IMG/VR virus record: IMGVR_UViG_3300008262_000026
Length of the DNA: 64,000 bases
Strand: one strand, 5' to 3'
Source: a virus
Taxonomy: Duplodnaviria > Heunggongvirae > Uroviricota > Caudoviricetes
Shown: positions 1,163-27,937 of the stretch, piece after piece
Numbering within the stretch: the first letter of the stretch is position 1
How the letters are laid out: each line of letters opens with the position of its first letter
Made by a program: the position numbers and the translations under genes
Notes under the pieces: model-generated
What the model was told of the DNA's origin: nothing
The model's database searches: none
What the model saw: the letters and a program-made list of their open reading frames with translations, nothing else

Positions 1163-1218
1163 ACACCTGAATAACTGTCACAAGGGCATCCCACAGGTGC
1201 CCTTTTTGGTCTATAATG
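1163..1218 (+). terminator. cassette A1: CACCTGAA-AACTG-CACAAGGGCA hairpin terminator + TATAAT (1212..1217)
   Basis: GC hairpin AAGGGCATCCCACAGGTGCCCTT plus T5, then TATAAT. Confidence 0.6.
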
Positions 1219-1238
1219 ACATTATGCGAAACAAACTA

Positions 1239-1502
1239 ATGGAAACCGAAATCATCAACGGACACAAAGCAGTTGTCCGTCATATCTTCAAACCAGAAGA
1301 AATTAAAGTTGGTTCAAAATGGATTCGTGCTGATGGTTCTGGTGGTATTGTAACAATTGAAGGTGTCAATCAATATGGTTCAATGGAACCTTGGACTGAA
1401 GTTGAGTTCTCTTGGGATTTTGATGGAGAAAAGGTGATTCACGCAAAAGATGCCTTCTCTTTTCAATGTCGTTATCTGTTGATTGTTGAGGATGAAGAAT
1501 GA
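1239..1502 (+). CDS. hypothetical protein
   Basis: ORF after cassette at 1163..1218. Start trimmed to the first ATG downstream of the TATAAT. Confidence 0.45.
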   Translation: METEIINGHKAVVRHIFKPEEIKVGSKWIRADGSGGIVTIEGVNQYGSMEPWTEVEFSWDFDGEKVIHAKDAFSFQCRYLLIVEDEE

Positions 1503-1690
1503 AAATCTATCTGGTTGCTGAAGACTATGATTATGGTCCAGGTTATAATCTGGGGGAAATTCACAAGGCATTCAAATCAAAAGAAAAAGCAGAAGAACTA
1601 GCAAAGAAAATGCTTGATGAGTATAATCAGGAACCTTTCCAAACGGTTTTTGATGTTATCTATGTAATGGAAATGGAGATGGAAGAATGA
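1499..1690 (+). CDS. hypothetical protein
   Basis: ATGA-overlapped plus-strand ORF. Confidence 0.45.
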   Translation: MKIYLVAEDYDYGPGYNLGEIHKAFKSKEKAEELAKKMLDEYNQEPFQTVFDVIYVMEMEMEE

Positions 1691-1965
1691 TTTACCTTTC
1701 ACTGTCACTTAAAAATCCATTCTCAGAAAGATATTCAGTTGTCTATGAGAAATTTGGAAAAACTTGGAATCCTTATAAGTTTTGGGATTTCAGTATTTCC
1801 AAAAATAGTTTTATTTTTGGATTTGCCTTTGACTTTAGCATCAGACAAGACCACGCAGGTTTTGGTTTTGATATTAGCATTTTTGGTTGGGGTATTGACT
1901 ATAGATTTTATGATGACCGACACTGGGATTATAAAATGGTTGCTGGGAGGAATACTAATGATTGA
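1687..1965 (+). CDS. hypothetical protein (F/G/D-rich)
   Basis: Plus-strand ORF. Stop overlaps ATG at 1958. Confidence 0.4.
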   Translation: MIYLSLSLKNPFSERYSVVYEKFGKTWNPYKFWDFSISKNSFIFGFAFDFSIRQDHAGFGFDISIFGWGIDYRFYDDRHWDYKMVAGRNTND

Positions 1966-2134
1966 AGCACTTGAATCTGCTTGGTATGAGGGAAGAGTCT
2001 TTTGTGCCTTTGAAACCCGTGAAGAATGTAAGGATTACATTAAAAAATGCTATCCTAATATTGACCCATTTGATGTTCAACTAAAAACAATGTATGTAAG
2101 TGAATACAAACCTTCTGGATACTTTGACCGATGA
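1958..2134 (+). CDS. hypothetical protein
   Basis: MIEALES... starts in ATGATTGA overlap. N-terminal part of track ORF 1739..2134 is judged spurious. Confidence 0.4.
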   Translation: MIEALESAWYEGRVFCAFETREECKDYIKKCYPNIDPFDVQLKTMYVSEYKPSGYFDR

Positions 2135-2403
2135 AACAACTTAAACTCTTCCAATACGATAAGAAATCTTGGTATGATGAAGAAACCTCCCATACTTGGC
2201 AGTTTGGTATCTTCAAAAACCGCACATTTCTTTGGGTGAATTATGAGAACCCCACTAATCAATTTTGGTCTTCTGGTGGGTATTTTATAACTCTTTCATT
2301 TCTTTCTTGTTCTTTCTTTGGATTAGAATTCAACAACTGCGAACAGTGCCTTAGTTTTCACTTCTTTTCTGAATACTTTGAGGGGTGGGAGGAACAAAAC
2401 TGA
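2131..2403 (+). CDS. hypothetical protein
   Basis: Plus-strand ORF, ATGA overlap. Confidence 0.4.
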   Translation: MKQLKLFQYDKKSWYDEETSHTWQFGIFKNRTFLWVNYENPTNQFWSSGGYFITLSFLSCSFFGLEFNNCEQCLSFHFFSEYFEGWEEQN

Positions 2404-2635
2404 TTATGTCTTGGAAAGGTTATCACGTTTGGAACATTATTGAAAAGGAAACTGGTAGAGGTATGCTGTGTGCATTTCTATCTAGAAAGGAATGTGTTGA
2501 CCTTTGAAACAGGTAGTATGGAAGATGCTGAAGAAAAGTGGAGACTAGATAAGTTTACCTTTGAGCAATCTTTACTATTACGAAGAGAAACTGTTATGGA
2601 ACACTTTCCCCTTGTAGATTTAAATAACTGGGATT

Positions 2636-2878
2636 ATGACATTTGATAAAGACGAATACTACTCTTGGATAGCAGAAAACGACACATACCCAGAGCATTC
2701 ACATAAGTGGATTGTTGAGTTATATACGGGACTTAGTGTAGATTCTTATTTCAGGTCTTTAGGTCCATTTGATACCAAAGAGGATGCACATAAGTTCTCT
2801 CAGCATTATAAGAAGACATATACAAAACGAGGATTTATCTATAGAGCTTCTATCAAACCATTATGTGAGGTATTATGA
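2636..2878 (+). CDS. hypothetical protein
   Basis: Plus-strand ORF. Confidence 0.45.
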   Translation: MTFDKDEYYSWIAENDTYPEHSHKWIVELYTGLSVDSYFRSLGPFDTKEDAHKFSQHYKKTYTKRGFIYRASIKPLCEVL

Positions 2879-3063
2879 CTAAAACAGTAAAGTTCGTATC
2901 AGTCACTCGCACGATTGACCATAAGACACGGATTCATTATTTGGATGCCATTGATGAGGATGGTTTGCATTGGATGGCACAGATGGACCACAAGACAGAA
3001 CCTTTCCTGTGCTTCATTAGAGAATGGAGAAAAGACCCTCAACAACCGAAAATTTATGACTGA
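2875..3063 (+). CDS. hypothetical protein
   Basis: Plus-strand ORF, ATGA overlap. Confidence 0.45.
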   Translation: MTKTVKFVSVTRTIDHKTRIHYLDAIDEDGLHWMAQMDHKTEPFLCFIREWRKDPQQPKIYD

Positions 3064-3256
3064 ACCTGATTACAAAATTGAAGAGTTATTCAACACTAGA
3101 ATTCTGAAAGTTCAGTTCGTCATTTATGCTAGAACATACGATTCTTGGTCATTTGCTGTAGATGACAGATTTGATACTCTTGAGGAAGCAAAAGAAGTTG
3201 TTAGAATTCTGAGAAAATATAAAAAACGAGTATTTCATTATGTGGAGGAAGAATGA
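3056..3256 (+). CDS. hypothetical protein
   Basis: Start moved to ATGACTGAACC, the typical start form in this genome. Confidence 0.45.
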   Translation: MTEPDYKIEELFNTRILKVQFVIYARTYDSWSFAVDDRFDTLEEAKEVVRILRKYKKRVFHYVEEE

Positions 3257-3422
3257 CTGAAGAACAAAATGACAAAGAATAAGGTTGTATTTTATGGTGC
3301 TTGGGTAGTTTGGATTTCTTGTTGCCTATCTCCTGCACTTATTTTCGCATATCTTTTACATCAACAGTATGATTTAGATATAAAAATGTATGAATTGAGA
3401 ACAGAACTTATAGGAGTAAAAA

Positions 3423-3728
3423 ATGACTGACGACGAAATCCTTGAACTAGCAAAACTTGTTGGTGCTATGTGGATACATCTGCCACAACATGAAGAAAAC
3501 ATCAATCATCCAGAATTCGGAAGGCATACCTACATTTACGGAATAGCATACGAAAATGCACAGTATAATAAATGTGTTGCTGCTCTTCTCAAAGAACTTG
3601 TAAGGCAATACTCTACTTCTCTTCCACCAGATTCTGGTATGGATGAGTTTTATGCTAGAATGCATGGTGGAGAATCCGTGATATATGTTGATGATATTTT
3701 GAAAGTGATTAAGGAACTTGAAGGATGA
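3423..3728 (+). CDS. hypothetical protein
   Basis: Plus-strand ORF. Confidence 0.5.
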   Translation: MTDDEILELAKLVGAMWIHLPQHEENINHPEFGRHTYIYGIAYENAQYNKCVAALLKELVRQYSTSLPPDSGMDEFYARMHGGESVIYVDDILKVIKELEG

Positions 3729-3882
3729 ATAAGTATTCTGTGGTGCTTCATAGTGATGTAAGTGATTCTGATGTTTGGTTGAACTTTATTGTGAATACTC
3801 CCATGACACCAAAACAACTTGAAACTTATTATAAGTGTCAGAGTTTATCTATCAGTAAAGTAGATGTTGTGGAATTGAACCG

Positions 3883-4050
3883 ATGACTAAACCACATAAT
3901 GACCCTAAATTGATTAAAGAATTGAGGGAAAGAAGTGGTGCTGGACTTATGAATTGCAAGAAAGCACTATGCTCAACAAATGGAGATATGGAAGAAGCAA
4001 TTAAATGGTTAAATGAGCATCGCAGTTGGTGGGATGGTATTATTTACTGA
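3883..4050 (+). CDS. EF-Ts N-terminal (UBA-like, EF-Tu-binding) domain protein, 55 aa
   Basis: Not in the ORF track (<60 aa). [43 protein letters not shown] matches the EF-Ts N-terminal signature ([25 protein letters not shown]..L). Confidence 0.55.
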
Positions 4051-4057
4051 GGAAAAA

Positions 4058-4261
4058 ATGAATCAAAGAGCACAAAAAATCTGGAAAACCTTCTGTGATG
4101 AAGTAATTCGTCCACCATCAGAAGACCAAAAAGAAGCATTGGCATCAGCAATTCGTATGATTATAGATGAGTATGAAATTTTTATGGACAATGATAGTTT
4201 TGGTAATATGGTAGTAACTTCTAATGAACTTCGTATTCTTGCTGATGAGTTGGACAAATGA
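4058..4261 (+). CDS. hypothetical protein
   Basis: Start trimmed to MNQRAQ. The track's N-terminal extension overlaps the EF-Ts-like ORF. Confidence 0.45.
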   Translation: MNQRAQKIWKTFCDEVIRPPSEDQKEALASAIRMIIDEYEIFMDNDSFGNMVVTSNELRILADELDK

Positions 4262-4446
4262 GTTACCGTTGGATGACACATAAAGACCTTTCTGCTGCAA
4301 TAAGAGCACAGAATATCCTAAATTCAAGAGTAAAACGAGGGGAGATTGAACAACCAACAAAATATTCTTATGTTGTGTGTGGTTGTGGTGAAGAAGGTTG
4401 TGGATTTATTAGTTGTGTAAAAAATGAAAGTCAAAGAACTAATTGA
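4258..4446 (+). CDS. hypothetical protein
   Basis: Plus-strand ORF. Confidence 0.4.
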   Translation: MSYRWMTHKDLSAAIRAQNILNSRVKRGEIEQPTKYSYVVCGCGEEGCGFISCVKNESQRTN

Positions 4447-4660
4447 AGAACTACAAAAGTATCCAGAGGATATGGAAGTAGTTTTGCTTGGTGGTTGTGG
4501 TAGTTATGAACCATCAATAGAGGTAGAAAAAGTTACAGTAACGGTTTATCCAGAAGATATCAATGAAAAAGATGATTTTATGAAATCTTATTTTTCTAAA
4601 GATAGTGATGATTATTGGAGTTTTCGTAGAGTAGACGTGGATGTTATTGTGTTATGGTAA
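4424..4660 (+). CDS. hypothetical protein
   Basis: Plus-strand ORF. Confidence 0.45.
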   Translation: MKVKELIEELQKYPEDMEVVLLGGCGSYEPSIEVEKVTVTVYPEDINEKDDFMKSYFSKDSDDYWSFRRVDVDVIVLW

Positions 4661-4920
4661 TTATGAAACTCACAAGAATGATATTTGATTATTGGCGTTA
4701 TTGGATGTTATTTGATGATAGTGATGTAGAGTGGGTGAATATAAATGGAACAGAAGGTATTTGTTATTATGACGGGTATAATGCTACTTTCTGGTATTTG
4801 TTGAATATTTCATATTATCAAATGAATAACAAACTTTATGCCAAAACTGGATGTAAGGAACCTTATGAAGTTTTGAGTGATTTTGATGAGGACTACTTAT
4901 TGGAGAATGGTTATAAATGA
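4654..4920 (+). CDS. hypothetical protein
   Basis: Plus-strand ORF. Confidence 0.45.
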   Translation: MVIMKLTRMIFDYWRYWMLFDDSDVEWVNINGTEGICYYDGYNATFWYLLNISYYQMNNKLYAKTGCKEPYEVLSDFDEDYLLENGYK

Positions 4921-5147
4921 CCGAACTAACACCAGTGCAACAAGATTTATTAAATCTATTTCAACAAAAAGTTAAAAATTCTATTAAAGAAAGCAAAGTA
5001 GAGTATGACCCTACTACTTTTAGACCAATTAAAAAAATTGTATTAGAGATTGATTTGGAGTTTATGTGTGATAATTCTTTTTATATTTTAAAAGAAAAAT
5101 TATATGAAGTCGTTGGAAAAGTAATATGTGGGATTGAGACCACCTGA
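4917..5147 (+). CDS. hypothetical protein
   Basis: Plus-strand ORF followed by terminator cassette 5141..5196. Confidence 0.45.
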   Translation: MTELTPVQQDLLNLFQQKVKNSIKESKVEYDPTTFRPIKKIVLEIDLEFMCDNSFYILKEKLYEVVGKVICGIETT

Positions 5148-5196
5148 ACAACTGGCACAAGGGCACTGCAGAGGTGCCCTTTTTTGGTCTATAATG
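5141..5196 (+). terminator. cassette A2 (terminator + TATAAT 5190..5195)
   Basis: Same architecture. Confidence 0.6.
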
Positions 5197-5218
5197 ATTT
5201 CATACACACAAAGGACTG

Positions 5219-5419
5219 ATGACTTCTGAAAAAGCAAAACAAATCTATGATGCTTGGGAAAATGAGTATTGCCTACAAAAACATTTCTATGAACACCGTG
5301 CTCTTGCTGCTGCTATCCGTGCTGTTGCTGATAGATTTGCTACTGACTGGGGAGAATTACAACATCCTTATGATGTATTGAATGAGATTGCTAATGAACT
5401 GGAGAACCTAAATGACTGA
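5219..5419 (+). CDS. hypothetical protein (weak similarity to 17956..18180)
   Basis: Shares AAAIRAV/AAALRAV core with 17956..18180. Confidence 0.45.
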   Translation: MTSEKAKQIYDAWENEYCLQKHFYEHRALAAAIRAVADRFATDWGELQHPYDVLNEIANELENLND

Positions 5420-5600
5420 CTCTAAAACTCTAATTCAACGCATCGCAACGGCAATCTCCACTGCCCCTCAAGGTGAAACCTATGAGGACTGCCGCAATAA
5501 TGAGGCAAAGGCAGTTCTTGAAGAGATTGCTAATTGGATGGATGAGTATGAAAAACCTTGGACTACTTCTTCCAGATTTCGTGGGGAGGCAAACAAATGA
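5412..5600 (+). CDS. hypothetical protein (paralog of 42807..42995)
   Basis: IATAISTAP.GETY.D.RNNEAKA.LEE is shared with 42807..42995. Confidence 0.5.
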   Translation: MTDSKTLIQRIATAISTAPQGETYEDCRNNEAKAVLEEIANWMDEYEKPWTTSSRFRGEANK

Positions 5601-5803
5601 CTAAACCAGATTATAAAACTCTTCTCACCACACAATTCACGAAAGACCTTCTTTCTATCTACAAATCTGTTCGGAAAAATCGTAAAAAAATTCGTGAAGA
5701 TTTAGATGACGATTTTTGGACTGAAGATATTGATTGGAGTGTAGTAGAATATTTCATTTATGACCTTGAAGAATTAGCAGAGTATTTGGAAGCAAACAAA
5801 TGA
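5597..5803 (+). CDS. hypothetical protein
   Basis: Start trimmed to ATGACTAAACC. Confidence 0.45.
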   Translation: MTKPDYKTLLTTQFTKDLLSIYKSVRKNRKKIREDLDDDFWTEDIDWSVVEYFIYDLEELAEYLEANK

Positions 5804-6248: not shown

Positions 6249-6255
6249 GGATTTT

Positions 6256-8377: not shown

Positions 8378-8623
8378 ATGACTAATCAACAACCCCCTGA
8401 TATTATTGAAATCGGTGGTGTAAAATACCAACGAGTGGAAGAACCAAAACCACCGACACTTTATGATACTTTTATTAAAGAGCACGGAGATTACCCAATG
8501 GGCAGGAAAGATGCTTGTGATATTGTAAGAGGTTGGTTGATTGACCACACCGTAATTGAAACTGAAGATGCCGAAAGGGTTACATTTACTATTCTAAAAG
8601 AACAACTACAAACACCAAAATGA
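8378..8623 (+). CDS. hypothetical protein
   Basis: Plus-strand ORF. Confidence 0.45.
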   Translation: MTNQQPPDIIEIGGVKYQRVEEPKPPTLYDTFIKEHGDYPMGRKDACDIVRGWLIDHTVIETEDAERVTFTILKEQLQTPK

Positions 8624-8814
8624 CTGAACAACCATCAGACACAGAAATCCTTGAATTTCTACTCAATCAATTCAAATCTCATTCTCTCAAGATGGATGGT
8701 GTGAGTGATTGGGTGTTTATCAACACTGGATTTCCTATGAATCACGCAAAAGGAAGAACCGCAAGAGATGCCGTAATTGCCGCAATGAGGAAGCAGAAGA
8801 AAAATGAATCCTAA
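8620..8814 (+). CDS. hypothetical protein (paralog of 44..280)
   Basis: See 44..280. Confidence 0.5.
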   Translation: MTEQPSDTEILEFLLNQFKSHSLKMDGVSDWVFINTGFPMNHAKGRTARDAVIAAMRKQKKNES

Positions 8815-9722: not shown

Positions 9723-9990
9723 CAGAAATCAATGCTTACAGGTTACTCTATTTTATGGTGATGTGGTGAATGAGTTTGATAAACTCTTAACCGATTTGAG
9801 GCACTCTTATATCAAAGAAAGGTTCCATTCTTTTGTTCATGGGCAATGTTATAAATTCATCATTATAGAATATAAAGAGCAAGAAGCAATTTCCTCATTT
9901 CTTTCTCACAGAGAAGATGTTCTCACAAACCGAATCATCACTTTGACTGATGAACAAGTAAGTGTCCTAATTAGTTTATTTTTAAAATGA
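9715..9990 (+). CDS. hypothetical protein
   Basis: Start trimmed to ATGACTAAC overlapping the upstream stop. Confidence 0.4.
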   Translation: MTNRNQCLQVTLFYGDVVNEFDKLLTDLRHSYIKERFHSFVHGQCYKFIIIEYKEQEAISSFLSHREDVLTNRIITLTDEQVSVLISLFLK

Positions 9991-11321: not shown

Positions 11322-11747
11322 ATGACGAATCCACTAATTCAGAAGTTCTATGAGTTGCATCCAGAGAAGAAGCAAACTCCAAAAGTCATAAAAGCAGAAA
11401 ACTTTAAAGTAGAAATAAAACCAAAGGTTCAATACGAACTTGATAAGAAGTTTTCAGAGCAACTTAACGATTTGCAAGTTAAATTTGCCGAACAAGTTAA
11501 ATTTGCTGGATATTCAAACCCATCAGTTGCAACAGCACCATATAATCCAAGTGCAAACACAAAAGCATCAACAAGTATCAAATCTTATGATGTGAATAGT
11601 GTTTCCGATTCGTTTTTTCAAGTTGCAGAAAAAATCAAAGATGGAACAGCAAAAGTAACCAGTATGAATATGGAATATGATAATGTTGGTGGTAGTTTTA
11701 TGGCAGGACAAAGAATAACCTTTGAGGTTTATGTTTATGAATTCTGA
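11322..11747 (+). CDS. hypothetical protein
   Basis: Start trimmed to MTNPLIQKF. Confidence 0.45.
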   Translation: MTNPLIQKFYELHPEKKQTPKVIKAENFKVEIKPKVQYELDKKFSEQLNDLQVKFAEQVKFAGYSNPSVATAPYNPSANTKASTSIKSYDVNSVSDSFFQVAEKIKDGTAKVTSMNMEYDNVGGSFMAGQRITFEVYVYEF

Positions 11748-11888
11748 AGAACTTATCAAAAAAATTGAGAATATCTTACAAGGCAAGTCACTTGAAGAAT
11801 ACTTGAGGGAGAATATCGTAACTCAAGAAGAAAGGGATTATATTGATAGGGTATTATTAAAATCAATCTATGAGAAGTTTGGTGAGGA

Positions 11889-11943
11889 CACCTGAAGAAC
11901 TGGCACAAGGGCATCCCACAGGTGCCCTTTTTGCCTTATAATA
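11889..11943 (+). terminator. cassette A3 (terminator + TATAAT 11937..11942)
   Basis: Same architecture. Confidence 0.6.
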
Positions 11944-12132
11944 ACTGCATACACACAAACACATTATGGAAGCAAAAGTTACTAAAACTCTAACTTTGGT
12001 TTTGAGTGAATCTGATTGTAAAGAATTGAGAAATCAATTGGTAGAAATTGATGAACTTTGGAATCTTGAAGCAGCAGAGTTGAAGGAGTATTATAAAGGG
12101 TCTACTCTTGGTAAATTGTGGGAACATCTAAA

Positions 12133-12175
12133 CACTTTCTAAACTGGCACAAGAACACCACTTACGTATGAACTG
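12133..12175 (+). promoter_or_regulatory. hybrid element: ACTGGCACAAG (cassette-A core) fused to ...CGTATGAACTGATG (motif-B-like 3' end)
   Basis: CACTTTCTAAACTGGCACAAGAACACCACTTACGTATGAACTGATGACT precedes ORF 12176. Confidence 0.35.
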
Positions 12176-12466
12176 ATGACTACTGTTTATCTTTTGTTTT
12201 ACGACCCTGATACTGGTTCTAGAGAAGAATGGAACTACAACTATACTCCTTGTGAGTCGTTTTCAAATCCCGAAGACCGTGAAAAGCGAATTGAATATTT
12301 GAAAACTTCTAAGAACGATGATGGTGACAGTTGCGAATATGAGTTTCTAAGGTATGATATTGAAACTATGACTTCCAATCAACTTCAAAATCCACCTGAA
12401 TTCAATGTAAGCCCAAGAGGTGAATGGACTTATTCACATGAATATCTACAAGACGAGGACACTTGA
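12176..12466 (+). CDS. hypothetical acidic protein
   Basis: Plus-strand ORF between hybrid motif 12133..12175 and cassette 12459..12515. Confidence 0.5.
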   Translation: MTTVYLLFYDPDTGSREEWNYNYTPCESFSNPEDREKRIEYLKTSKNDDGDSCEYEFLRYDIETMTSNQLQNPPEFNVSPRGEWTYSHEYLQDEDT

Positions 12467-12515
12467 ACAACTGGCACAAGGGCACTTCACAGGTGTCCTT
12501 TTTTGCAGTATAATG
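12459..12515 (+). terminator. cassette A4 (terminator + TATAAT 12509..12514)
   Basis: Same architecture with GU-containing stem. Confidence 0.55.
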
Positions 12516-14852: not shown

Positions 14853-14862
14853 GGACAGATAA

Positions 14863-14910
14863 AGAACTGGCACAAGGGCATCCCATAGGTGCCCTTTTTG
14901 GTCTATAATA
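14863..14910 (+). terminator. cassette A5 (terminator + TATAAT 14904..14909)
   Basis: Same architecture. Confidence 0.6.
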
Positions 14911-17526: not shown

Positions 17527-17922
17527 ATGTTTAGCAAGAAAGTATTATCCACTGACAAGGCAAAAACCACACTTAACTGGTGGGAATATTGGATTGGTCA
17601 CTGTATTGCAACAGGTTTTCAATCTATGCGACTTGCTTTCATTAACTGGACACATTTGATGTGGTTTGAGGAAGAACAGAAGAACTATGCTCTTCTGAAA
17701 GATGATGACCCACTGGAGCAGTGTATCTTATACTTTTGGGATTCTCTTGAAGATGAAACATACCCCAAAGAGTTTCTTGAAGAACTAATGCAAATGGCAG
17801 ATGATGTTCAAACTGGTAAAGTAAAGACAGTTCCATTCACTCAAGATATGATGAATGAGATTATGGACTTGGTGGGTGACACTTTGGAAACCGGCACAGA
17901 GGACTGTCAGGATTGTGATTGA
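17527..17922 (+). CDS. hypothetical protein
   Basis: Plus-strand ORF. Confidence 0.5.
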   Translation: MFSKKVLSTDKAKTTLNWWEYWIGHCIATGFQSMRLAFINWTHLMWFEEEQKNYALLKDDDPLEQCILYFWDSLEDETYPKEFLEELMQMADDVQTGKVKTVPFTQDMMNEIMDLVGDTLETGTEDCQDCD

Positions 17923-17955
17923 TGCATTATAATATTTACATATGAATGAGATTTT

Positions 17956-20332: not shown

Positions 20333-20863
20333 ATGACTGATTTTGATTATAAAAAGTATTCTTTAGAGAACTTGGAAAATTGGATTTCCGATGCCATTCT
20401 GTCTGCAGAAGCATCTCCTGAGGAAATTTATGAAACCATTGTGAATGCAGTAAGGCAAGAGTATGATTATTTTAATTATCATACGACAAGAACTTATGAA
20501 CTTCTCTCTCTTCTGAATGGTAACAAGGTAACTGATGTTCTAGCATTAGATGGAGTGCAAATAGACCCTGCAGGAAATAATGTTGGTGTCTGCGATAGTG
20601 ATAATCTTTCTGATTATTGCAAGCAATCGTGGAATAGTTTTTGGCAAGAAGATGAATATAGTATTCGCGAAGAAGAATACTACAACAAACCAAATTCTAC
20701 ACCAAGTAAATGGATTCTTCCTGTAGAAATTGATGATGCAAGTGGAGAAAGTTTCATCACTCTTCCCAATGACCTACTAGATAAACTTGAATGGAAGGAA
20801 AGTGATGTTCTGGAGTATCTTGACAATCAAGATGGTTCCTTTACACTTAAGAAAGTACAATGA
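20333..20863 (+). CDS. hypothetical protein (177 aa)
   Basis: Start trimmed to MTDFDYKKY (ATGACTGA overlap). Confidence 0.5.
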   Translation: MTDFDYKKYSLENLENWISDAILSAEASPEEIYETIVNAVRQEYDYFNYHTTRTYELLSLLNGNKVTDVLALDGVQIDPAGNNVGVCDSDNLSDYCKQSWNSFWQEDEYSIREEEYYNKPNSTPSKWILPVEIDDASGESFITLPNDLLDKLEWKESDVLEYLDNQDGSFTLKKVQ

Positions 20864-21309: not shown

Positions 21310-21573
21310 TATTAAGCAACATTGCGACAACCTAAAGACATTCTTAAGAACAGGGGTTTTTCGCATAGATATGTTAGGATTTAAAGATATTTCACATTAA
21401 TATATGACATTTTCAAGAAAAAACAACAGCGAACTCACACAAGATGAGTGGAAAGAAATGGTTGATTTGAAAAATGCCATTGACTATAATATCACACAAG
21501 TTCATCCTGACAAGCAGGAACAGTTCACTGAGTATCTTGTAAGAAGTCTAAAAGAACGAGGTGGTTGAAAATT

Positions 21574-22109: not shown

Positions 22110-22111
22110 TT

Positions 22112-22639
22112 ATGGCACAATTTAATGTTGGTGATATTGTCACCAAAATCTATGGTAAAAAGCCTGGTGAGGTTACTTACGCTTCTGGTGGATACTATAC
22201 TTGTAGGTATCTTCACTCCAGACAAACTTTTTATGCTTACGAGCGAGATCTAAAACTTTACGAAGAGGAAACTGAAATGACCACTGATACTAAAACTCTC
22301 TACTCCTTTACGATTGATGGTGAGAACCGTTGTCGTTATGGCACTCACATTGGCACCAACAGTCAGAACCAATATCTGATTGAAGAAAAGGGCACTGGTG
22401 CTATTCATGTCTTTGATAAGAAAGACCTGGAAGAAGTGGTTCCTTATACTTTCAGTGCCTCTATCAACGGCAAGGAAACTCATTACATCGGCACTCCTGA
22501 TGTTCTGAAGAAAGGTGATGTGCTGCTTCACACTGGTTCTACCACTCCTCAGGTTGCTGTTGTGACTGGTGTGGATACTAAGAACAAAGGTGCCCGTGCC
22601 AAATTCAAGGGTGCCAAGATCGTCACTGAGGCAATCTGA
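22112..22639 (+). CDS. hypothetical protein (175 aa)
   Basis: Plus-strand ORF followed by cassette 22640..22688. Confidence 0.5.
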   Translation: MAQFNVGDIVTKIYGKKPGEVTYASGGYYTCRYLHSRQTFYAYERDLKLYEEETEMTTDTKTLYSFTIDGENRCRYGTHIGTNSQNQYLIEEKGTGAIHVFDKKDLEEVVPYTFSASINGKETHYIGTPDVLKKGDVLLHTGSTTPQVAVVTGVDTKNKGARAKFKGAKIVTEAI

Positions 22640-22688
22640 AAACTGGCACAAGGGCATCCCACTGGTGCCCTTTGATGCCTTATAATAA
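22640..22688 (+). terminator. cassette A6 (terminator + TATAAT 22681..22686)
   Basis: Same architecture, interrupted T-run. Confidence 0.5.
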
Positions 22689-22709: not shown

Positions 22710-23027
22710 ATGAAACCTATTCTTGCTATTTTCGGTGGTGTGATTGGTGTAGGTGCCCTGACATGGGGACTCACCTATCATGAACTGATCTTCACTGGAT
22801 TCTTTGCTCCTAAGTTTGAGAATGTTCGTAGGAACACTTTTGAGCAATCCAAATCCTTCCGAACTGGTGCTGTTCAAGAACTTCAGAACATGCAGTTTGA
22901 ATACATCAAAGCATCACCTGAACATAAGAAAGCACTTGCTGATGTGATTCGGCATCGTGCCGTTGAAGTTCCTGCTGATGCCATGCCTTCCGATCTTCAG
23001 TCCTTTATTTCTAATCTTCCTCAGTGA
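22710..23027 (+). CDS. membrane-anchored hypothetical protein
   Basis: N-terminal TM helix ILAIFGGVIGVGALTWGL. Confidence 0.5.
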   Translation: MKPILAIFGGVIGVGALTWGLTYHELIFTGFFAPKFENVRRNTFEQSKSFRTGAVQELQNMQFEYIKASPEHKKALADVIRHRAVEVPADAMPSDLQSFISNLPQ

Positions 23028-23032
23028 TTCTG

Positions 23033-23572
23033 ATGACTACTAACTATCCTGAATTTATTGCTTTTCCTAAAATTCCCCGCCTTCATAAGGAATGCGTGGT
23101 TACTGAAAAGATTGATGGAACTAATGGCATTATCTACATCACTGATGATGGAGATATGTTTATTGGAAGTCGCAATCGTTGGTTGAGTGCAGAATCCGAT
23201 AACTTTGGTTTTCATCGTTGGGCATCTGAAAATAAAGATGAACTGATGAAACTTGGTTTTGGTCGTCATCATGGAGAGTGGTGGGGTAGTGGCATTCAAC
23301 GAGGATACAATCTCCCTAAAGGTGAGAAGAGGTTTTCTCTGTTCAATGTGAATATCTGGAATTATGAAAACATTCCTGCCTGTTGCCATGTGGTTCCAAC
23401 TCTTTATACTGGAGAGTTTAGCACTAATGCAATTGATGATGTAATGTATAATCTTGAAACTAATGGTTCTGTTGCTTCTGAAGGTTTTATGAATCCTGAA
23501 GGTGTGATGATTTACCATTCTGCTGCTAATCATTATTTCAAGGCACCTTTTGATAAAAATCATAAGGGTTGA
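23033..23572 (+). CDS. ATP-dependent RNA ligase (PF09414/Rnl-like nucleotidyltransferase)
   Basis: Motif I KIDGTN, motif IV EGFMNPEGVMIY, motif V KAPFDK. ATG start chosen over the track's GTG. Confidence 0.6.
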   Translation: MTTNYPEFIAFPKIPRLHKECVVTEKIDGTNGIIYITDDGDMFIGSRNRWLSAESDNFGFHRWASENKDELMKLGFGRHHGEWWGSGIQRGYNLPKGEKRFSLFNVNIWNYENIPACCHVVPTLYTGEFSTNAIDDVMYNLETNGSVASEGFMNPEGVMIYHSAANHYFKAPFDKNHKG

Positions 23573-23633
23573 GGACACTTTCTAAACTGGCACAAGACCC
23601 TTCCCATTCTCAGCAAATCTACCCTATACTAAC
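23571..23633 (+). promoter_or_regulatory. cassette A7, degenerate (ACTGGCACAAG core, TATACT 23625..23630, no clean hairpin)
   Basis: Shares CACTTTCTAAACTGGCACAAG with the 25881 and 12133 copies. Confidence 0.35.
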
Positions 23634-23651
23634 TTCAGTTCAAACAAACAA

Positions 23652-24137
23652 ATGAAAACTATCGTTTCTGTTGCCGCACTTGCTATTCTTGGTCTTACCC
23701 TGACTGGTTGTGAAATTGAAGCGGATTCTGATGATACTCAACGTTCTCAACAAGAACGTATTCTGAAAGAGGCAACTTCGCAAACTGGTATGCCTGCTAT
23801 CAAGAACTTCCGTGAGCGTAAGTTGCTGAAGCAGATTATTGAAATGCGTGATCAGGATGGTGTTGTGACCTACACTTACACTCTTCCCGAAACTACTGGT
23901 GTTCCCGTGTTTCTGTGTAATTCTATTGGATATGGTATTCCTGCTGCTACACAATATACCAATCCTGAGAAGTATGAATACACTGGCACGACTCTTCCTC
24001 AGGCAGATCCTAATGGTTTGTTCTCTCCTGATAGTGCTGATGGCACTTGGGTGATGTGTTCTGATCCCAGTGGTAGTGGCAAGACCCGTCCTGTTTATGT
24101 TGAACCCCGTATTATTGTTTCTCCTTTCAAACTGTGA
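23652..24137 (+). CDS. lipoprotein
   Basis: Signal peptide plus lipobox LTLTGC. Confidence 0.6.
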   Translation: MKTIVSVAALAILGLTLTGCEIEADSDDTQRSQQERILKEATSQTGMPAIKNFRERKLLKQIIEMRDQDGVVTYTYTLPETTGVPVFLCNSIGYGIPAATQYTNPEKYEYTGTTLPQADPNGLFSPDSADGTWVMCSDPSGSGKTRPVYVEPRIIVSPFKL

Positions 24138-24331
24138 TGAACTCCAAAGGATTTACTCTTGTTGAACTGATGATTGCCGTTGCTATTCTTGGCATTCTTG
24201 CTGCTATTGGTATCGGTGCAATCTCAGGCAATTCTTTTATTCAAACCAAAGATTCTTGCCTGAATGCTGGTGGCAAATGGTCTGAGGGCATTCAATACGG
24301 TCGTGTGACTCAACTCTGTACTTATAACTGA
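24137..24331 (+). CDS. type IV pilin-like (prepilin N-terminal methylation motif) protein
   Basis: MNSKGFTLVELMIAVAILGILAAIGIG has the class III signal with G|F and E5. ATG start chosen over the track's GTG. Confidence 0.6.
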   Translation: MNSKGFTLVELMIAVAILGILAAIGIGAISGNSFIQTKDSCLNAGGKWSEGIQYGRVTQLCTYN

Positions 24332-24333
24332 TT

Positions 24334-24633
24334 ATGTCTCCTAAAAATTCTATTGGTAAGGAAAAGGCAATTCAACTCTACAACACCAACTGGTGGGAAG
24401 GACTTTCTTATGAAGAGATTGCTGAATTTCAACTTTTCACTTCTGAACTCTGTTGCCCCTTTGATGTATTTCACGAAGCAGTTGAGAAGTCACTGGGTCG
24501 TCCTGTATTCACTCACGAATTTGGATTGAACTATCAGGGTATTTGTAATGAGTTTCTTGGAGAAAAAGAATCTCCTACAACGGATGAAATTCTGAATCTG
24601 ATTCCTCAAGAAAAACTTATTGTTATCAAATAA
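24334..24633 (+). CDS. hypothetical protein
   Basis: Plus-strand ORF. Confidence 0.45.
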   Translation: MSPKNSIGKEKAIQLYNTNWWEGLSYEEIAEFQLFTSELCCPFDVFHEAVEKSLGRPVFTHEFGLNYQGICNEFLGEKESPTTDEILNLIPQEKLIVIK

Positions 24634-24872
24634 TGGACGAAGATACTAAACAATTTCTGAAGTTTGCCGGCATTTGTGCTGGCATTACCACTGTTTCAAT
24701 GCTGATTCTTGTAGGTGCCGGTTATACATTTGAGGCGATTGAAGACTCCATTAAATTCAATCGTTATCAAGATGCGATGAAAGAGTACCGACAATGTGCC
24801 CAAAAGTACCAAGATTCCCTATCTGTGAGACTTTATTGTGGCGATGAACCTTCCTCTACTATGATGCTATGA
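24633..24872 (+). CDS. membrane protein
   Basis: TM helix ICAGITTVSMLILVGAG. Confidence 0.45.
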   Translation: MDEDTKQFLKFAGICAGITTVSMLILVGAGYTFEAIEDSIKFNRYQDAMKEYRQCAQKYQDSLSVRLYCGDEPSSTMML

Positions 24873-25060
24873 TTGGACGCATTCTTGGTACAGGAATCGG
24901 AATACTTCTGATTCTCCTTGTGCTTCTTGCAAGAGGTATTCCTGTCTTGTTCTTTATCAAGATGCTGCCTCTTGTTCTGATTCTTATTCTGGGAGCAGCA
25001 TTTGTCTATGCTGGTCTCACTTCTGACTGATTGTTCTTTACTCAACTAACTTAAATTATT

Positions 25061-25882
25061 ATGTCTCTCGCAAAAGTTGCTATCGGTGGTGGTGCAGTTG
25101 TTCTTGCCCTTGTGCTCACTGCTGGTCAATTCACCACTATCAACACTGGTGAAAATGGCCTCTACACTGATTTCCAAGGTAAGGTGAAGAATGAGATTCT
25201 CACTCCTGGAATCAAGTATGATGGTCTGGGTTCTATCAAGGTATTCAATACCCGTAAGATTACTGTTCAATCTAACGACCTGACTCCTAAGACCAAAGAC
25301 AACACCATTATGAAAGATATGGATGTTGTGGTTACTTACAGTCTGTCTCCTACCAGTCTGTATGAGTTCTACACTGGTTATGATATTACTAATCACTCTC
25401 TGAGTCAGAATGGTCAGATTGAACTGATGGCAAGTTTCATCAAGCGTCTGATTACTTCTGCTGTGAATCAATCGGTTGATGAATATCCTGCTCTGGAAGT
25501 GAACAGCAGTCTGGATAAAATTCAGGAAACTATCAAACAGAACCTGAATATTGCTCTGGAGAAGAACAATCTTGCTGGTAAGATTGATATTGAATCTGTG
25601 GTGGTTGTAAAGGCAGACCTGCCCGAACAACTGGTTGATTCTGTGAATCGTGTGGTTGCTGCTCAATCTGACTACAAGGAACAGGAAGTGAAGACTCGCA
25701 CTGCTCAACTGAAAGCAGAACAAAACAAGGCACTTGCTTCTACTGTGACCAACCAATCTCTGGAGTATCAACGTAACGAAATTCTCAAGGCAGCATTTGA
25801 GAATGGTAGCATTCAGAAGATGGTGATTATCAATGGTGCTAAGATGGACTTCCTCCCTGGTGGTTTCTCTGACGGTAAGTGA
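25061..25882 (+). CDS. SPFH/band-7 (prohibitin/HflC-like) protein
   Basis: N-terminal TM helix followed by an SPFH-type domain (TTINTGENGL..., long coiled-coil tail). Confidence 0.7.
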   Translation: MSLAKVAIGGGAVVLALVLTAGQFTTINTGENGLYTDFQGKVKNEILTPGIKYDGLGSIKVFNTRKITVQSNDLTPKTKDNTIMKDMDVVVTYSLSPTSLYEFYTGYDITNHSLSQNGQIELMASFIKRLITSAVNQSVDEYPALEVNSSLDKIQETIKQNLNIALEKNNLAGKIDIESVVVVKADLPEQLVDSVNRVVAAQSDYKEQEVKTRTAQLKAEQNKALASTVTNQSLEYQRNEILKAAFENGSIQKMVIINGAKMDFLPGGFSDGK

Positions 25883-25940
25883 CACTTTCTAAACTGTCAC
25901 AAGGGCATCCTACAGGTGCCCTTTTCTGCTTTATAATACT
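25881..25940 (+). terminator. cassette A8 (terminator + TATAAT 25932..25937)
   Basis: Same architecture. Confidence 0.6.
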
Positions 25941-25960
25941 CTCATAAGCAAAGGGTTCAA

Positions 25961-26692
25961 ATGTTCCAATTCGCAGAAGTCGGTGGTGCAGTTCGGGATA
26001 AGTTCCTGGGACTGGATTCCAAAGACGTTGATTTTGTTGCTGTTCCTGAAAATGCTGATACCTTTCTGAATGCAGATGCCGCATTTATGTTTCTCTGCAC
26101 TCACCTGAAAGAACAGGGGTTCAAAGTATTTCTGGAAACTCCTGAATTCTTTACTGTTCGGGCACAAGTTCCTGATGGTCATCCACTGAAAGAACGCACT
26201 AATGTTGCTGATTTTGTGCTTGCCCGTAAGGATGGTCCCAGCAGTGATGGTCGCCGCCCTGACTTTGTTCTGCCCGGAACCCTGATGGATGACCTGCAGA
26301 GACGGGATTTTACCGTCAATGCGATGGCAATTCTGAATGGGGAACTGGTGGATCCATTCGGGGGCAGGAACGATCTGGAGGAGGGTCTGCTGCGGTTTGT
26401 GGGTGATCCTACCCAACGCATCGCAGAGGACGGTCTGAGGGTCATGAGGGCACTGAGGTTCTTTGTAACTAAAGGGTTTAATATGGATGCCGATACTTGG
26501 GATGCAATCAACAGTGATTTTGCTGCTGAAATGCTGACCAAAGTATCTGTAGATCGTATCCGTGAGGAACTGGAAAAAATGTTCTTTACGAATACTCTGT
26601 GGAGTCTGAAAGTTCTGGATGATTTGAATACCGAAGTTCGCAAGGCAATCTTCCGTGATGGCCTGCGTCTGATGCCCACTCTGAAAAAGTAA
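25961..26692 (+). CDS. nucleotidyltransferase, poly(A) polymerase/CCA-adding enzyme head-domain family
   Basis: GGAVRD...DVDF (GGxVRD plus DxD) signature of class II tRNA nucleotidyltransferases. Only 243 aa. Confidence 0.6.
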   Translation: MFQFAEVGGAVRDKFLGLDSKDVDFVAVPENADTFLNADAAFMFLCTHLKEQGFKVFLETPEFFTVRAQVPDGHPLKERTNVADFVLARKDGPSSDGRRPDFVLPGTLMDDLQRRDFTVNAMAILNGELVDPFGGRNDLEEGLLRFVGDPTQRIAEDGLRVMRALRFFVTKGFNMDADTWDAINSDFAAEMLTKVSVDRIREELEKMFFTNTLWSLKVLDDLNTEVRKAIFRDGLRLMPTLKK

Positions 26693-26765
26693 ATTATGAT
26701 TAACCTTCTAAAAATCGCATTCATTGCTTATATTGCAGTTGCTATCTACGGTCAGGGTATTAAAG

Positions 26766-27314
26766 ATGGAAAAAGAGAATGTAACAGACCTCAGGAAGCA
26801 CCTGTTGCAACGACACCTAAACCTTGAACTACATCGTCCATTTTTAGATGAAGAACTCAACATCGCCACTTTTTATTGTTGGAACCTATCAGGACAACTG
26901 GTAGGATACCAGCAATACAACCCAAATGGTGATAAGAAAATCTTCAACTCTAAACTGGAGGGCAAATACTACACCTACAGAAACAAGAATCACCAAACAG
27001 TAGTTGTATGGGGCACTGAGAGTCTCTATCAGTCAGATGGTGTTGTCTATCTGACTGAAGGAATCTTTGATGCTGCCCGTATGACAAATGTGGGACAATC
27101 TGCTCTTGCTGCTATGGCAAATAATCCACCAAAGGATTATAGAAACTGGTTGCAAATGCTAAATCGTCCTGTGGTTGCTGTTTGTGATAATGATGATGCA
27201 GGAAAAAAACTTGCCAAGTTCGGGCATTATGTAGAAGTGGTGCCTGATGGTAAAGATTTGGGTGATGCTCCTGATGATTATGTTAGGTATCTACTCAACA
27301 AGTATGCCACCTGA
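26766..27314 (+). CDS. Toprim domain protein
   Basis: LTEGIFDA ... VCDNDDAG ... (Toprim E and DxD motifs). Start trimmed to MEKENV. Confidence 0.5.
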   Translation: MEKENVTDLRKHLLQRHLNLELHRPFLDEELNIATFYCWNLSGQLVGYQQYNPNGDKKIFNSKLEGKYYTYRNKNHQTVVVWGTESLYQSDGVVYLTEGIFDAARMTNVGQSALAAMANNPPKDYRNWLQMLNRPVVAVCDNDDAGKKLAKFGHYVEVVPDGKDLGDAPDDYVRYLLNKYAT

Positions 27315-27364
27315 ACAACTGGCACACTGAGGCACCCAGAACGTTCTGGGTGCCTTTATAGTAA
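27308..27364 (+). terminator. cassette A9: perfect 24-bp palindrome GGCACCCAGAACGTTCTGGGTGCC + TTTATAGT
   Basis: CACCTGAACAACTGGCACA lead-in, 12-bp perfect stem. Confidence 0.55.
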
Positions 27365-27385
27365 CAAGATAATCAACCACACATC

Positions 27386-27724
27386 ATGAAACTCTATCCT
27401 GTTAAGATTGTCTACATCACAATGGTTGCTGCAGTCAATGAAGATTTCGCATATCGTTATGTGAAAGAGGATCCAAATGTGATTGTTGTAGATTCAGATC
27501 CAGATCAAATTGTAGTTCGACCTGCAATTCAAAAGGAAAAGGATATTCCATCAGAATGGAATGGAGCACTTCCTTATGGTGACAATGAAAAGGAAATGAC
27601 TTGCAATCAGATTGTGAGAATGAGTAGCAAAAGCGTTTTCATTGATAGTCTGAGTGAAGCAGAGAAGAACAAGATTCTTCATAAATTCACTGCCGAAGAA
27701 CTTGCCGAATTTCTGTATAAGTGA
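27386..27724 (+). CDS. hypothetical protein
   Basis: Plus-strand ORF after cassette 27308..27364. Confidence 0.45.
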   Translation: MKLYPVKIVYITMVAAVNEDFAYRYVKEDPNVIVVDSDPDQIVVRPAIQKEKDIPSEWNGALPYGDNEKEMTCNQIVRMSSKSVFIDSLSEAEKNKILHKFTAEELAEFLYK

Positions 27725-27882
27725 AATGTCTGAACTCACATTCCTGATTGATGAAGCAGTGAAGAGTATGGAAAAACATGAAGGAATTCGCTCTGCACTG
27801 TATTTGAGAGCAGCACACGATTATATTCACAATATCCAGTCAATTACTCTTGAGGTTTGTCTAGAAAATTATGTGCCAGTGA

Positions 27883-27937
27883 CACCTGAATAACTGACAC
27901 AAGGCACTTGACAGACAAAATCAAATGCCTTATACTA
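27883..27937 (+). terminator. cassette A10 (variant hairpin + TATACT 27931..27936)
   Basis: CACCTGAATAACTGACACAAGGCA lead-in. Confidence 0.45.

Follow-up and report, generated by a model that had tools for sequence, protein, structure and literature searches.

Promoter-early stem-loops (PeSLs) have been described in the T4-like phages RB49/phi1, T4/PST and KVP40/nt-1 (Arbiol et al. 2010, PMC2839356; Comeau et al. 2014, PMC4122927). The cyanomyoviruses S-PM2 and Syn9 have sigma70-like early promoters and possess no Alt, Mod, MotA or AsiA (PMC2984593). Stem-loops were noted in the S-PM2 ORFanage, including one at 11369–11391, and a PeSL mechanism was judged unlikely for that phage (PMC4503421).

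The window, the whole stretch of 64,000 nucleotides analysed here, is assigned by its gene content to the T4-like cyanomyoviruses. Its gp6 baseplate wedge protein is 57–61% identical to the counterparts in Synechococcus phages B3/B23, S-SM2 and P-TIM68, and further T4-like core genes were found. The genes lie on the plus strand without exception, and the region of 1–28 kb is dense with small ORFans. A scan of the window for AACTGGCACAAGGGCA with at most three mismatches gave nine matches, all on the plus strand, against 0.24 expected, and 0 of 100 shuffles attained nine. This bears out the repeat family announced in a preliminary description of this DNA; its count of ten copies is replaced by 12, all on the plus strand, found with a profile built from relatives. 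The invariant parts were read from 212 non-identical relatives from IMG/VR, S-PM2, B3/B23 and S-SRM01. Seven copies are canonical, with AACTGG starting at 1173, 5150, 11898, 12469, 14865, 22641 and 25892. All 12 are intergenic, between small plus-strand ORFs at 1–28 kb, the majority of which have no family match. The copies are listed below; transcription start sites and 3′ ends of this phage are predictions.

1162..1217, plus strand: cassette 1; box 1162–1182 (GACACCTGAATAACTGTCACA), hairpin 1182–1204, T-run, −10 TATAAT 1212–1217, predicted +1 at 1224; first ATG 1224, second ATG 1239.
5139..5195, plus strand: cassette 2; box 5139–5159 enclosing the stop TGA (5145–5147) of the upstream ORF, hairpin 5159–5181 with T6, −10 5190–5195, ATG 5219.
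11887..11942, plus strand: cassette 3; box 11887–11907 with upstream stop TGA 11893–11895, hairpin 11907–11929 with T5, −10 11937–11942, ATG 11966.
12131..12178, plus strand: "hybrid" copy; AACTGG 12142, box (ACACTTTCTAAACTGGCACAAG), motif-B-like GTATGAAC 12166–12173, ATG of the next gene 12176; no hairpin (dG −0.2) and no −10.
12458..12514, plus strand: cassette 4; box, hairpin 12478–12500 with T6, −35 TTCACA 12486–12491, −10 12509–12514, ATG 12536; promoter matching the sigma70 consensus at 11 of 12 positions.
14854..14909, plus strand: cassette 5; box, hairpin 14874–14896 with T5, −10 14904–14909, ATG 14933.
17879..17933, plus strand: degenerate copy 17890; box variant AACCGGCACA, CTGTCA-18-TATAAT, −10 17928–17933, no stable hairpin.
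22630..22686, plus strand: cassette 6; box enclosing upstream stop TGA 22637–22639, hairpin 22650–22672 followed by TTTGATG instead of a proper T-run, −10 22681–22686, ATG 22710.
23574..23630, plus strand: copy 23585; box and TATACT (23625–23630) at the family spacing, no hairpin (dG 0), ATG 23652.
25881..25937, plus strand: cassette 7; box with the perfect dyad GTGACA-N10-TGTCAC, hairpin 25901–25923, −10 25932–25937, ATG 25961.
27306..27362, plus strand: variant cassette 27317; box enclosing upstream stop TGA 27312–27314, palindrome 27331–27354 (dG −22) differing from the canonical hairpin, −10 TATAGT 27357–27362, ATG 27386.
27882..27936, plus strand: variant cassette 27893; box variant AACTGACACA, −35 TTGACA 27908–27913, 17-nt spacer, −10 TATACT 27931–27936; weak stem only, without a GC terminator; Ro-like gene 156 nt downstream.

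The canonical copies share a 9-bp stem, AAGGGCAYY/RRGTGCCCTT, and a loop of 5 nt; their dG lies between −13 and −15 kcal/mol. In five of the seven a run of five or six Ts follows, two of them paired at the stem base; the exceptions are 25892 (TTTTCT) and 22641 (TTTGAT). TATAAT comes 3–4 nt after the T-run, near the ~4 nt originally claimed, and the canonical copies are rightly described as a TATAAT promoter joined to a terminator-like hairpin. On sequence alone these copies have the features of intrinsic (Rho-independent) terminators, and the best four terminator-like sites by score within 1–20 kb are four cassettes. Two further details of the preliminary description are correct: 27331–27354 is a perfect 24-nt palindrome, and the hybrid copy does join the family core to a motif-B-like end, with the box at 12142 followed by GTATGAAC. 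The centre of the anatomy it gave has to be shifted, however; what it omitted are a −35-like hexamer in the hairpin loop, a fixed distance between box and −10, and the constancy of the box.

The promoter part is strongly conserved. Among 226 non-identical family members the TATAAT profile is T.97 A1.0 T.87 A.89 A.75 T1.0, and a purine stands 7 nt downstream in 100%. In the relatives a TTSACA-like hexamer (the −35 region as a whole reads TTSAMA-like) lies 7 nt past the box and 17±1 nt from TATAAT; most window copies have weak −35 hexamers with three of six matches (CCCACA or TCCCAC). The hairpin brackets this −35: its 5′ arm occupies the 7 nt from box to hexamer, the loop opens with the hexamer, and the 3′ arm falls inside the 17-nt spacer and in this phage carries a U-tract. 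An ATG is found 21–23 nt past the −10 in 8 of the 11 window copies that have one, leaving a leader of 15–17 nt between +1 and ATG with a weak or absent Shine-Dalgarno sequence. A predicted sigma70-like promoter is placed just upstream of the start of the next gene.

The constant element of the family is the box and not the hairpin. The consensus of the box in the 212 relatives is G(A/C)CAC-N6-AACTGGCACA, at about −63 to −43, or in longer form G(A/C)CAC(T)T-N4-AACTGGCACA(A/G)G, at about −63 to −41, and every position of AACTGGCACA is at least 92% conserved in the 226 members. The distance from box to −10 is 29–30 nt in 202 of 212 members. Copies 23585, 17890 and 27893, in which the GC hairpin is absent, retain box, spacing and −10, which suggests that the box works independently of the hairpin. 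Since the box keeps its 29–30 nt from the −10 whatever the hairpin, we infer a DNA-acting upstream promoter element; the fixed distance could partly go back to a common ancestor that already had the 7-nt box-to-(−35) interval and the 17-nt spacer of sigma70 promoters. A sigma-54 promoter (TGGCAC-N5-TTGCW, with GG and GC 10 nt apart) was considered and rejected, as TGGCACAAGGGCA has GC 7 nt after GG. The last two or three codons of the upstream ORF, together with its stop, often lie in the box: 98 of 179 cassettes have this stop ending within −3 to +2 of AACTGG, and where it ends at −2 (48 ORFs) about 40 ORFs terminate in ...DT*. The upstream ORFs that end in the box have unrelated coding ends.

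The hairpin is under selection, its structure being kept while its sequence is free. The mean dG over the 212 members is −11.5 kcal/mol versus −5.0 in shuffles, and 72% of members versus 4% of shuffles reach −8 or better, with 118 distinct 5′ arms. In loci retrieved by box and TATAAT only, the stem is paired in 94.6% of cells versus 73.7% in shuffles, with 124 versus 35 double-change cells and covariation at 9 of 9 pairs; these counts come from a CM-derived, structure-fitted alignment that inflates pairing somewhat. Stems slid along as controls are paired in 41–63% of cells. A T-run of at least four follows the stem in 52 of 89 loci of this less biased set, retrieved by box and TATAAT, and in just 14% of members retrieved by the exact 16-mer; given the latter figure, termination may not be what the hairpin generally does. 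At the gathering threshold Rfam has no match at the cassettes of the window. Its only two matches in the window, both to a tRNA model, lie at 29670–29786 and 30162–30274.

The family is widespread in cyanophages. The cassette is present in the S-PM2 ORFanage (at least four cassettes), in B3/B23 and in S-SRM01, and in at least 120 IMG/VR stretches among the matches listed; the strict pattern has a single match in 596 Gb of bacterial and archaeal genomes. The S-PM2 cassette at NC_006820 11342–11419 covers the stem-loop reported at 11369–11391 (PMC4503421). Related contigs, more than 20 of them, show a scrambled gene order. In the relative L003, positions 5345–5613 are 99.3% identical to window positions 918–1186, a 269-nt module made up of the gene 925–1158 and the initial 28 nt of cassette 1. 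In L003 the module is inserted between homologues of the window genes 22710–23027 and 23033–23572, which are only 74–83% identical, and its right junction falls between box and hairpin. This one module places a cassette at an indel or replacement junction between related phages.

A second element of the window, motif B, bears on the reading of the box.

34086..53463, plus strand: motif B; (A)ACTGGGCCC-N3-AAAGTGCATC-N2-TAGT-ATG, 19 copies; variant copies outside this interval at 21573, 30288 and 31593.

As the preliminary description held, AACTGG is common to the cassette family and motif B: the 19 copies begin with AACTGGGCC, and three others with TTACTGG or AAGTGG. Each motif B copy spans ~30 nt from a stop codon to the next start codon. 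AACTGG covers roughly −52 to −47 relative to a predicted sigma70-type promoter in the cassette family; motif B has it 29 nt ahead of the ATG that starts the next gene. Of 59 ATGs in this position 57 begin an ORF of 39 codons or more, one case being confirmed by ortholog alignment; with the next gene starting at this ATG, TAGTAT cannot be its −10. Orthologues of window genes preceded by motif B have cassette-type (A) elements in other phages, so both families occupy equivalent positions. One factor might read AACTGG in both, as the preliminary description proposed.

The cassettes resemble PeSLs in being repeated between the genes of a T4-like myovirus where small ORFans abound, in combining a stem-loop, here a putative terminator, with a predicted sigma70-like early promoter and a start codon close behind, and in their association with insertion or replacement of genes in related phages. 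Their stem, AAGGGCA...TGCCCTTTTT in the window, is also similar to the nt-1 consensus A3-4G3-loop-C3T3-4, and a predicted host-type −35/−10 promoter ahead of early-type genes is shared with S-PM2 and Syn9. In contrast to classical PeSLs, whose stem-loop lies upstream of the −35, the window stem-loop straddles it; the AT-rich tract upstream of the −35 is absent and its place is taken by the GC-neutral, mixed-composition 21-nt box G(A/C)CAC-N6-AACTGGCACA; Shine-Dalgarno sequences are weak or absent; and the family is common to many diverged cyanophage lineages and not to one phage pair. The sequence-specific upstream box is, on this comparison, a new element on a PeSL-like cassette. The cyanophage papers covered, PMC2984593 and PMC4503421 among them, make no mention of a conserved box or a loop-embedded −35. 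Anatomy, the covarying hairpin and the exchanged module, established in silico along with conservation and spacing, point to PeSL-like mobile promoter/terminator cassettes. The copies are thus probably compact, self-contained intergenic regulatory cassettes of a T4-like cyanophage, composed of a terminator-like hairpin, a host-type promoter and the box, with promoter, terminator and box activities that we infer from the sequence.

Readings in which RNA structure or RNA binding is central fare less well. The preliminary description proposed an antiterminator-like pairing of the lead-in CACCTG with CAGGTG in the hairpin; as an attenuator, this would decide between stop and read-through. Copies 1173 and 11898 do contain the two hexamers, as does 12469 if G-U pairs are allowed, but no more than these two or three window copies have both, and a complementary 6-mer is found in only 7 of 68 family members examined. 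In the 89-sequence alignment this pairing is seen in 64.2% of cells versus 61.6% in shuffles, its covariation score is 0.091 versus 0.075, and each core pair is broken without compensation in 28–32 sequences; RNAfold never chooses the helix, and CACCTGA is mostly the final codons and TGA stop of the upstream ORF. With CACCTG/CAGGTG near shuffle level and the upstream dyad not covarying, a mutually exclusive alternative helix finds no support, and attenuation of this kind is very improbable. The box might otherwise act on RNA: in read-through transcripts it would lie immediately 5′ of the terminator stem and be bound by an RNA-binding protein of the phage or its host. This could be an antiterminator of the RAT/BglG or nut kind or a factor for RNA processing or stability, and it would allow timed read-through into the next operon and delayed-early expression without MotA; MotA, AsiA and Alt are indeed missing from cyanomyoviruses (PMC2984593). 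The box directly borders the hairpin's 5′ arm, with overlap where the stem is extended, as conserved sequences lie just 5′ of or overlap the terminator stem in RAT/terminator (BglG/SacY-type) systems and lambda nut, and it shares AACTGG with motif B, whose start codon requires that motif B be transcribed. There is also an imperfect upstream dyad, TGTGNCA-N10-TGNCACA; 12 of the 212 members have it in perfect form, as do copies 25892 and 27317 of the window. Across the 212 members, however, the dyad is without significant covariation and mostly complementary at three of seven positions. Unlike RAT/BglG and nut sites, the box comes with no supported mutually exclusive structure, it keeps its phase with the −10 rather than with the 3′ arm or T-run, and it is retained where the hairpin is wholly absent. 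We consider an RNA-acting box unlikely.

An equally doubtful reading denies the box any regulatory role and sees in it only a linker for recombination, a patch of homology or a site-specific enzyme's target, homogenised by frequent exchange, so that the cassettes would be essentially boundaries of mobile gene cassettes. The presence of a 99.3%-identical gene-plus-box module at another locus of the L003 relative, with its junction within a cassette, the scrambled gene order and the overlap of the box with the ends of unrelated ORFs agree with this, and PeSL mini-circles were demonstrated experimentally for RB49 and phi1 (PMC2839356). But exchange by homology needs no single 10-mer at least 92% invariant beside a fully diverged hairpin, and the strict phasing with the −10 is left unexplained. 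A linker role is compatible with the cassette reading as an extra consequence of it.

If the copies are regulatory cassettes, the stem-loop would serve the RNA of the upstream operon as an intrinsic terminator or 3′-end protector, and termination there would insulate the promoter against read-through. Host RNA polymerase with its primary sigma factor would then initiate the next, presumably early, operon at TATAAT, and the box would act on DNA as an UP-like element or as an activator or operator site. Since cassettes are near-identical within and between phages, they may double as homology patches for shuffling small genes together with their own expression signals. T4 early promoters carry A/T-tract upstream elements that are read by alpha-CTD, a reading modulated by Alt ADP-ribosylation. 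The predicted promoters would be analogous in their strong −10 and a conserved sequence at about −40 to −60; they differ in that the window element is a specific mixed-sequence 10-mer and not an A/T tract, and we know of no Alt homologue in the phage of the window. A strong −10 combined with an upstream element would let phage promoters outcompete those of the host.

Judged by its larger genes, the window is assigned to a T4-like cyanomyovirus. Megablast of 25 kb of the window against isolated phages gave zero matches: no isolate is close at the nucleotide level, and the replicon was instead identified via its proteins. The gp6 baseplate wedge protein (56680-58590) shares 57-61% identity with its counterparts in Synechococcus phages B3/B23, S-SM2 and P-TIM68, and a Ro-like protein shares 70% with that of B3/B23. 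Coding potential is confined to the + strand; ORFs of 40-200 aa, the majority without a family match, crowd the first ~28 kb.

The repeat of a hairpin joined to a TATAAT box, reported in the preliminary description, is present far beyond chance: the core AACTGGCACAAGGGCA, with up to three mismatches, has nine matches, all on the + strand, versus 0.24 expected. With a profile derived from relatives, 12 copies of this cassette are detected in the window. The seven canonical ones (AACTGG at 1173, 5150, 11898, 12469, 14865, 22641 and 25892) have a stem of 9 bp, a loop of 5 nt and a dG of about -13 to -15 kcal/mol; five of them carry T5-6 after the stem, then 3-4 nt and TATAAT. The copy at 27317 has another hairpin, which contains the perfect 24-nt palindrome noticed earlier. 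Copies 27893, 17890 and 23585 lack the GC hairpin and keep the upstream sequence and the -10 at the same spacing; only the upstream sequence is retained in copy 12142, previously called a hybrid. Eleven window copies have a -10, and in 8 of them the start codon lies 21-23 nt beyond it. The earlier description is thus accurate, but it had not identified which part stays constant.

This part, here called the box, emerges from comparison of relatives. An exact-match scan of IMG/VR with a 16-mer yielded 88 loci in 73 distinct contexts, about 58 of which share the whole architecture, and profile searches of the loci fetched by then gave 212-226 non-identical family members. Among isolated phages, the cassette occurs in S-PM2 (in the 'ORFanage'), B3/B23 and S-SRM01. 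In the column profile, every position of the 10-mer AACTGGCACA is at least 92% conserved, the -10 reads T.97 A1.0 T.87 A.89 A.75 T1.0, and a purine lies 7 nt 3' of it in 100% of members. A second conserved block, G(A/C)CAC(T)T, lies 10-11 nt 5' of AACTGGCACA. The end of the box is 29-30 nt from the -10 in 202 of 212 members, and a TTSACA-like hexamer, separated from the box by a 7-nt segment, is located 17±1 nt 5' of the -10. By sequence, this anatomy is that of a predicted sigma70-type promoter with an additional sequence-specific element upstream, at about -63 to -43. Spacing excludes a sigma-54 interpretation of TGGCAC. The strict composite GACAC-N6-AACTGGCACA-N29-30-TATAAT has a single match, on a 1-kb contig, in 596 Gb of bacterial and archaeal genomes, hence the cassette is not a common host promoter type.

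The -35 hexamer is enclosed by the stem-loop, whose 5' arm fills the 7-nt gap from box to hexamer and whose 3' arm floats in position within the spacer. The stem-loop is conserved in structure and not in sequence, with 118 distinct 5' arms. The mean dG is -11.5 kcal/mol versus -5.0 in shuffles, and values of -8 or below occur in 72% of hairpins versus 4% of shuffles. To avoid ascertainment through the hairpin sequence, loci were fetched by AACTGGCACA-N29-30-TATAAT alone, and 89 sequences among the matches listed were aligned with a covariance model. In these 89 sequences, stem positions pair in 94.6% of cells (73.7% in shuffles; 41-63% in slid controls), two-sided changes occur in 124 cells versus 35 in shuffles, and all nine of the nine pairs covary. 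The stem-loop is under selection. A run of at least four T after the stem is found in 52 of the 89 sequences fetched by box and TATAAT, versus only 14% of the members ascertained by the 16-mer; a canonical terminator, as predicted from sequence, is common and is the rule in the window, but is not universal across relatives. An Rfam search gave zero matches at the cassettes.

The antiterminator-like helix between CACCTG and CAGGTG that had been proposed earlier is not supported by the same comparison. Only two or three window copies contain both hexamers; of 68 members examined, 7 have a complementary 6-mer. Among the same 89 listed matches, this helix pairs in 64.2% of cells versus 61.6% in shuffles, covariation is at background (0.091 versus 0.075), and 28-32 sequences disrupt each core pair without a compensating change. 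CACCTGA is coding sequence in most cases. Of the 179 cassettes with a clear upstream ORF, 98 have the last base of its stop codon between -3 and +2 of AACTGG, and 56 more have it at the left edge of the box; a stop ending at -2 is seen for 48 ORFs, about 40 of which terminate in Asp-Thr-stop, coded by GACAC(T/C)TGA. An upstream dyad, TGTGNCA-N10-TGNCACA (form TGTGCCA-N10-TGGCACA), was considered as a hairpin or palindromic operator and rejected, since it lacks covariation and only 12 of 212 members carry it in perfect form.

The distance from the box to the -10 is fixed while the hairpin varies in size and position, and the box is kept in copies without a hairpin. For both reasons the box probably acts on DNA, in phase with RNA polymerase, where it could be an UP-like element or an activator or operator site alongside the promoter. 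Action of the box at the RNA level is improbable, and we give similarly little weight to the box being purely a recombination linker. Homologues of the small ORFs from 1-28 kb occur in many differing orders in more than 20 related contigs. A module of 269 nt at 918-1186, comprising the gene 925-1158 (a 77-aa ORFan) and the first 28 nt of the first cassette, is 99.3% identical to positions 5345-5613 of L003, a relative's stretch. There it lies as an insert between the counterparts of window genes 22710-23027 and 23033-23572, whose identity is just 74-83%; the insertion is absent from this interval both in L050, another relative, and in the window. Such identity at different positions, in phages otherwise 74-83% identical, indicates recent horizontal exchange. 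The high identity ends between the box and the hairpin, and from the -10 on only family-level similarity is seen.

At least four cassettes are located in the 'ORFanage' of S-PM2 (NC_006820), at 5075-5147, 8569-8647, 9852-9925 and 11342-11419; the annotated start of S-PM2p035 (9900) falls within the third. The 'ORFanage' is a dispensable region, for which acquisition from freshwater phages has been suggested.

By sequence organization, the closest known system is the promoter-early stem-loops (PeSLs) of T4-like phages. Both are composites of a stem-loop, here a predicted terminator, and a promoter in an ORFan setting of T4-like phages, tightly coupled to the next start codon and linked with gene exchange; the behaviour of the 918-1186 module is that described for PeSLs in RB49/phi1, T4/PST and KVP40/nt-1 (PMC2839356, PMC4122927). 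In contrast to PeSLs, whose stem-loop precedes the -35, the cassette stem-loop straddles it, and a specific box takes the place of the AT-rich upstream tract. Early promoters of the sigma70-like type are an accepted feature of cyanomyoviruses (PMC2984593); one S-PM2 stem-loop has already been noted, and the PeSL mechanism was judged unlikely for this phage (PMC4503421). The box was undescribed in the literature searched, the key older S-PM2 genome and Syn9 transcriptome papers lying outside its scope; searches with motif strings matched only unrelated primer lists, and promoter analysis is absent from the S-SRM01 paper.

A second repeat family, motif B, has the form (A)ACTGGGCCC-N3-AAAGTGCATC-N2-TAGTATG and comprises 101 non-identical copies overall, 22 of them in the window:

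Motif B copies in the window
34086-53463 (n=19; + strand), plus 21573, 30288 and 31593

The AACTGG that it was said to share with the cassettes is real, and lies within a few nt 3' of the upstream stop in both families. The ATG of TAGTATG opens an ORF of at least 39 codons in 57 of 59 cases, and the protein after copy 39269 aligns with its orthologues from residue 1 (MNTPNWKHNSGK versus MSTPNWQHNSGK). Where ATA or GTA replaces ATG, the gene starts 17-40 nt further downstream. With translation of the next gene beginning at this ATG, motif B is a complete stop-to-start spacer of ~30 nt. A sigma70 promoter with TAGTAT as the -10 was ruled out, the ATG inside TAGTATGA being a start codon, and a sigma70-like -10 is missing from any usable position. 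An ACUG/CAGU stem proposed by eye was also ruled out: positions 24-25 vary and their invariant partners never compensate. Blastn against isolated phages gave zero matches for motif B. Several genes preceded by motif B have orthologues in other phages with A-type cassettes, and copy 50666 lies ~30 nt 3' of a strong terminator; both observations place motif B in promoter-equivalent positions. Candidate roles for motif B are leaderless-type promoter, processing site and translational operator, and a single factor shared by the two families is possible.

Other elements of the window belong to neither family. An RNA-repair-type gene cluster is located at 23033-30274:

RNA-repair-type cluster and adjacent tRNA-model matches
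23033-23572, + strand: RNA ligase domain, member of the cluster
25961-26692, + strand: tRNA nucleotidyltransferase, member of the cluster
28093-29559, + strand: Ro60-like protein, member of the cluster
29670-29786 and 30162-30274: tRNA-model matches of 113-117 nt, 3' of the Ro60-like gene

ARAGORN called zero tRNAs, including at both tRNA-model matches, which may be tRNA-like domains of Y-RNA-like RNAs. Directly 3' of the Ro-like gene and 5' of the first tRNA-like element, a promoter-like site without a box (29570-29605; GAAGGGGG-TTGACA-ACCTCTCCCCCTTC..TAAAAT, spacer 17 nt) has the same loop-embedded -35 design. Two non-coding repeats of ~125 nt (45227-45350 and 49856-49985; 76% identical to each other) end in a hairpin with the loop ACTGGTAAT and a T-run, and may represent small RNA genes or a further family of terminators. 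In the motif B region, a helicase ORF (36255-37502) covers only positions 267-589 of a 986-position profile, and two separate Dam-like methyltransferase ORFs (30865-31593 and 38184-39083) share one PHROG match; splitting or duplication of genes may underlie both observations. The sequence CTCTAAATA at 54416-54424, 5' of the gene adjoining the baseplate module, matches NATAAATA, the late-promoter motif reported for cyanomyoviruses, so that the window appears to hold three signal classes: A, B and late.

We consider the cassette family real, widespread and mechanistically suggestive, with activities that are predictions. The 10-mer of the box is as invariant as the -10, phased to it, and near-absent from cellular genomes in the strict form searched. 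T4-like cyanophages lack Alt, Mod, MotA and AsiA, and the timing of their early and middle transcription is still a puzzle (PMC2984593). We tentatively speculate that the AACTGGCACA box, and possibly also the AACTGG-led motif B, could be the putative site of a dedicated protein, whether phage-encoded, virion-delivered or a recruited host factor, that marks phage transcription units in these cyanomyoviruses. A search for candidate box-binding proteins brought up only ORF 20333-20863, whose C-terminal part gives a weak MazE/AbrB-like (SpoVT-AbrB) match (E 2.8e-4, under Pfam's cut-off); homologues of this ORF are found in many cassette-bearing contigs, and as a candidate DNA-binding protein it is a speculative lead.

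The family extends the PeSL concept of mobile regulatory cassettes to cyanophages, backed by a clean exchange junction, and provides a concrete, widely conserved cis-element for testing cyanophage early and middle timing. The cassettes help to explain how large ORFan regions are assembled and their expression sustained in abundant aquatic viruses. A dedicated box protein, if real, would constitute a new phage transcription-control system, with a cis-element carried on mobile gene cassettes between cyanophage lineages of fresh water and the sea.
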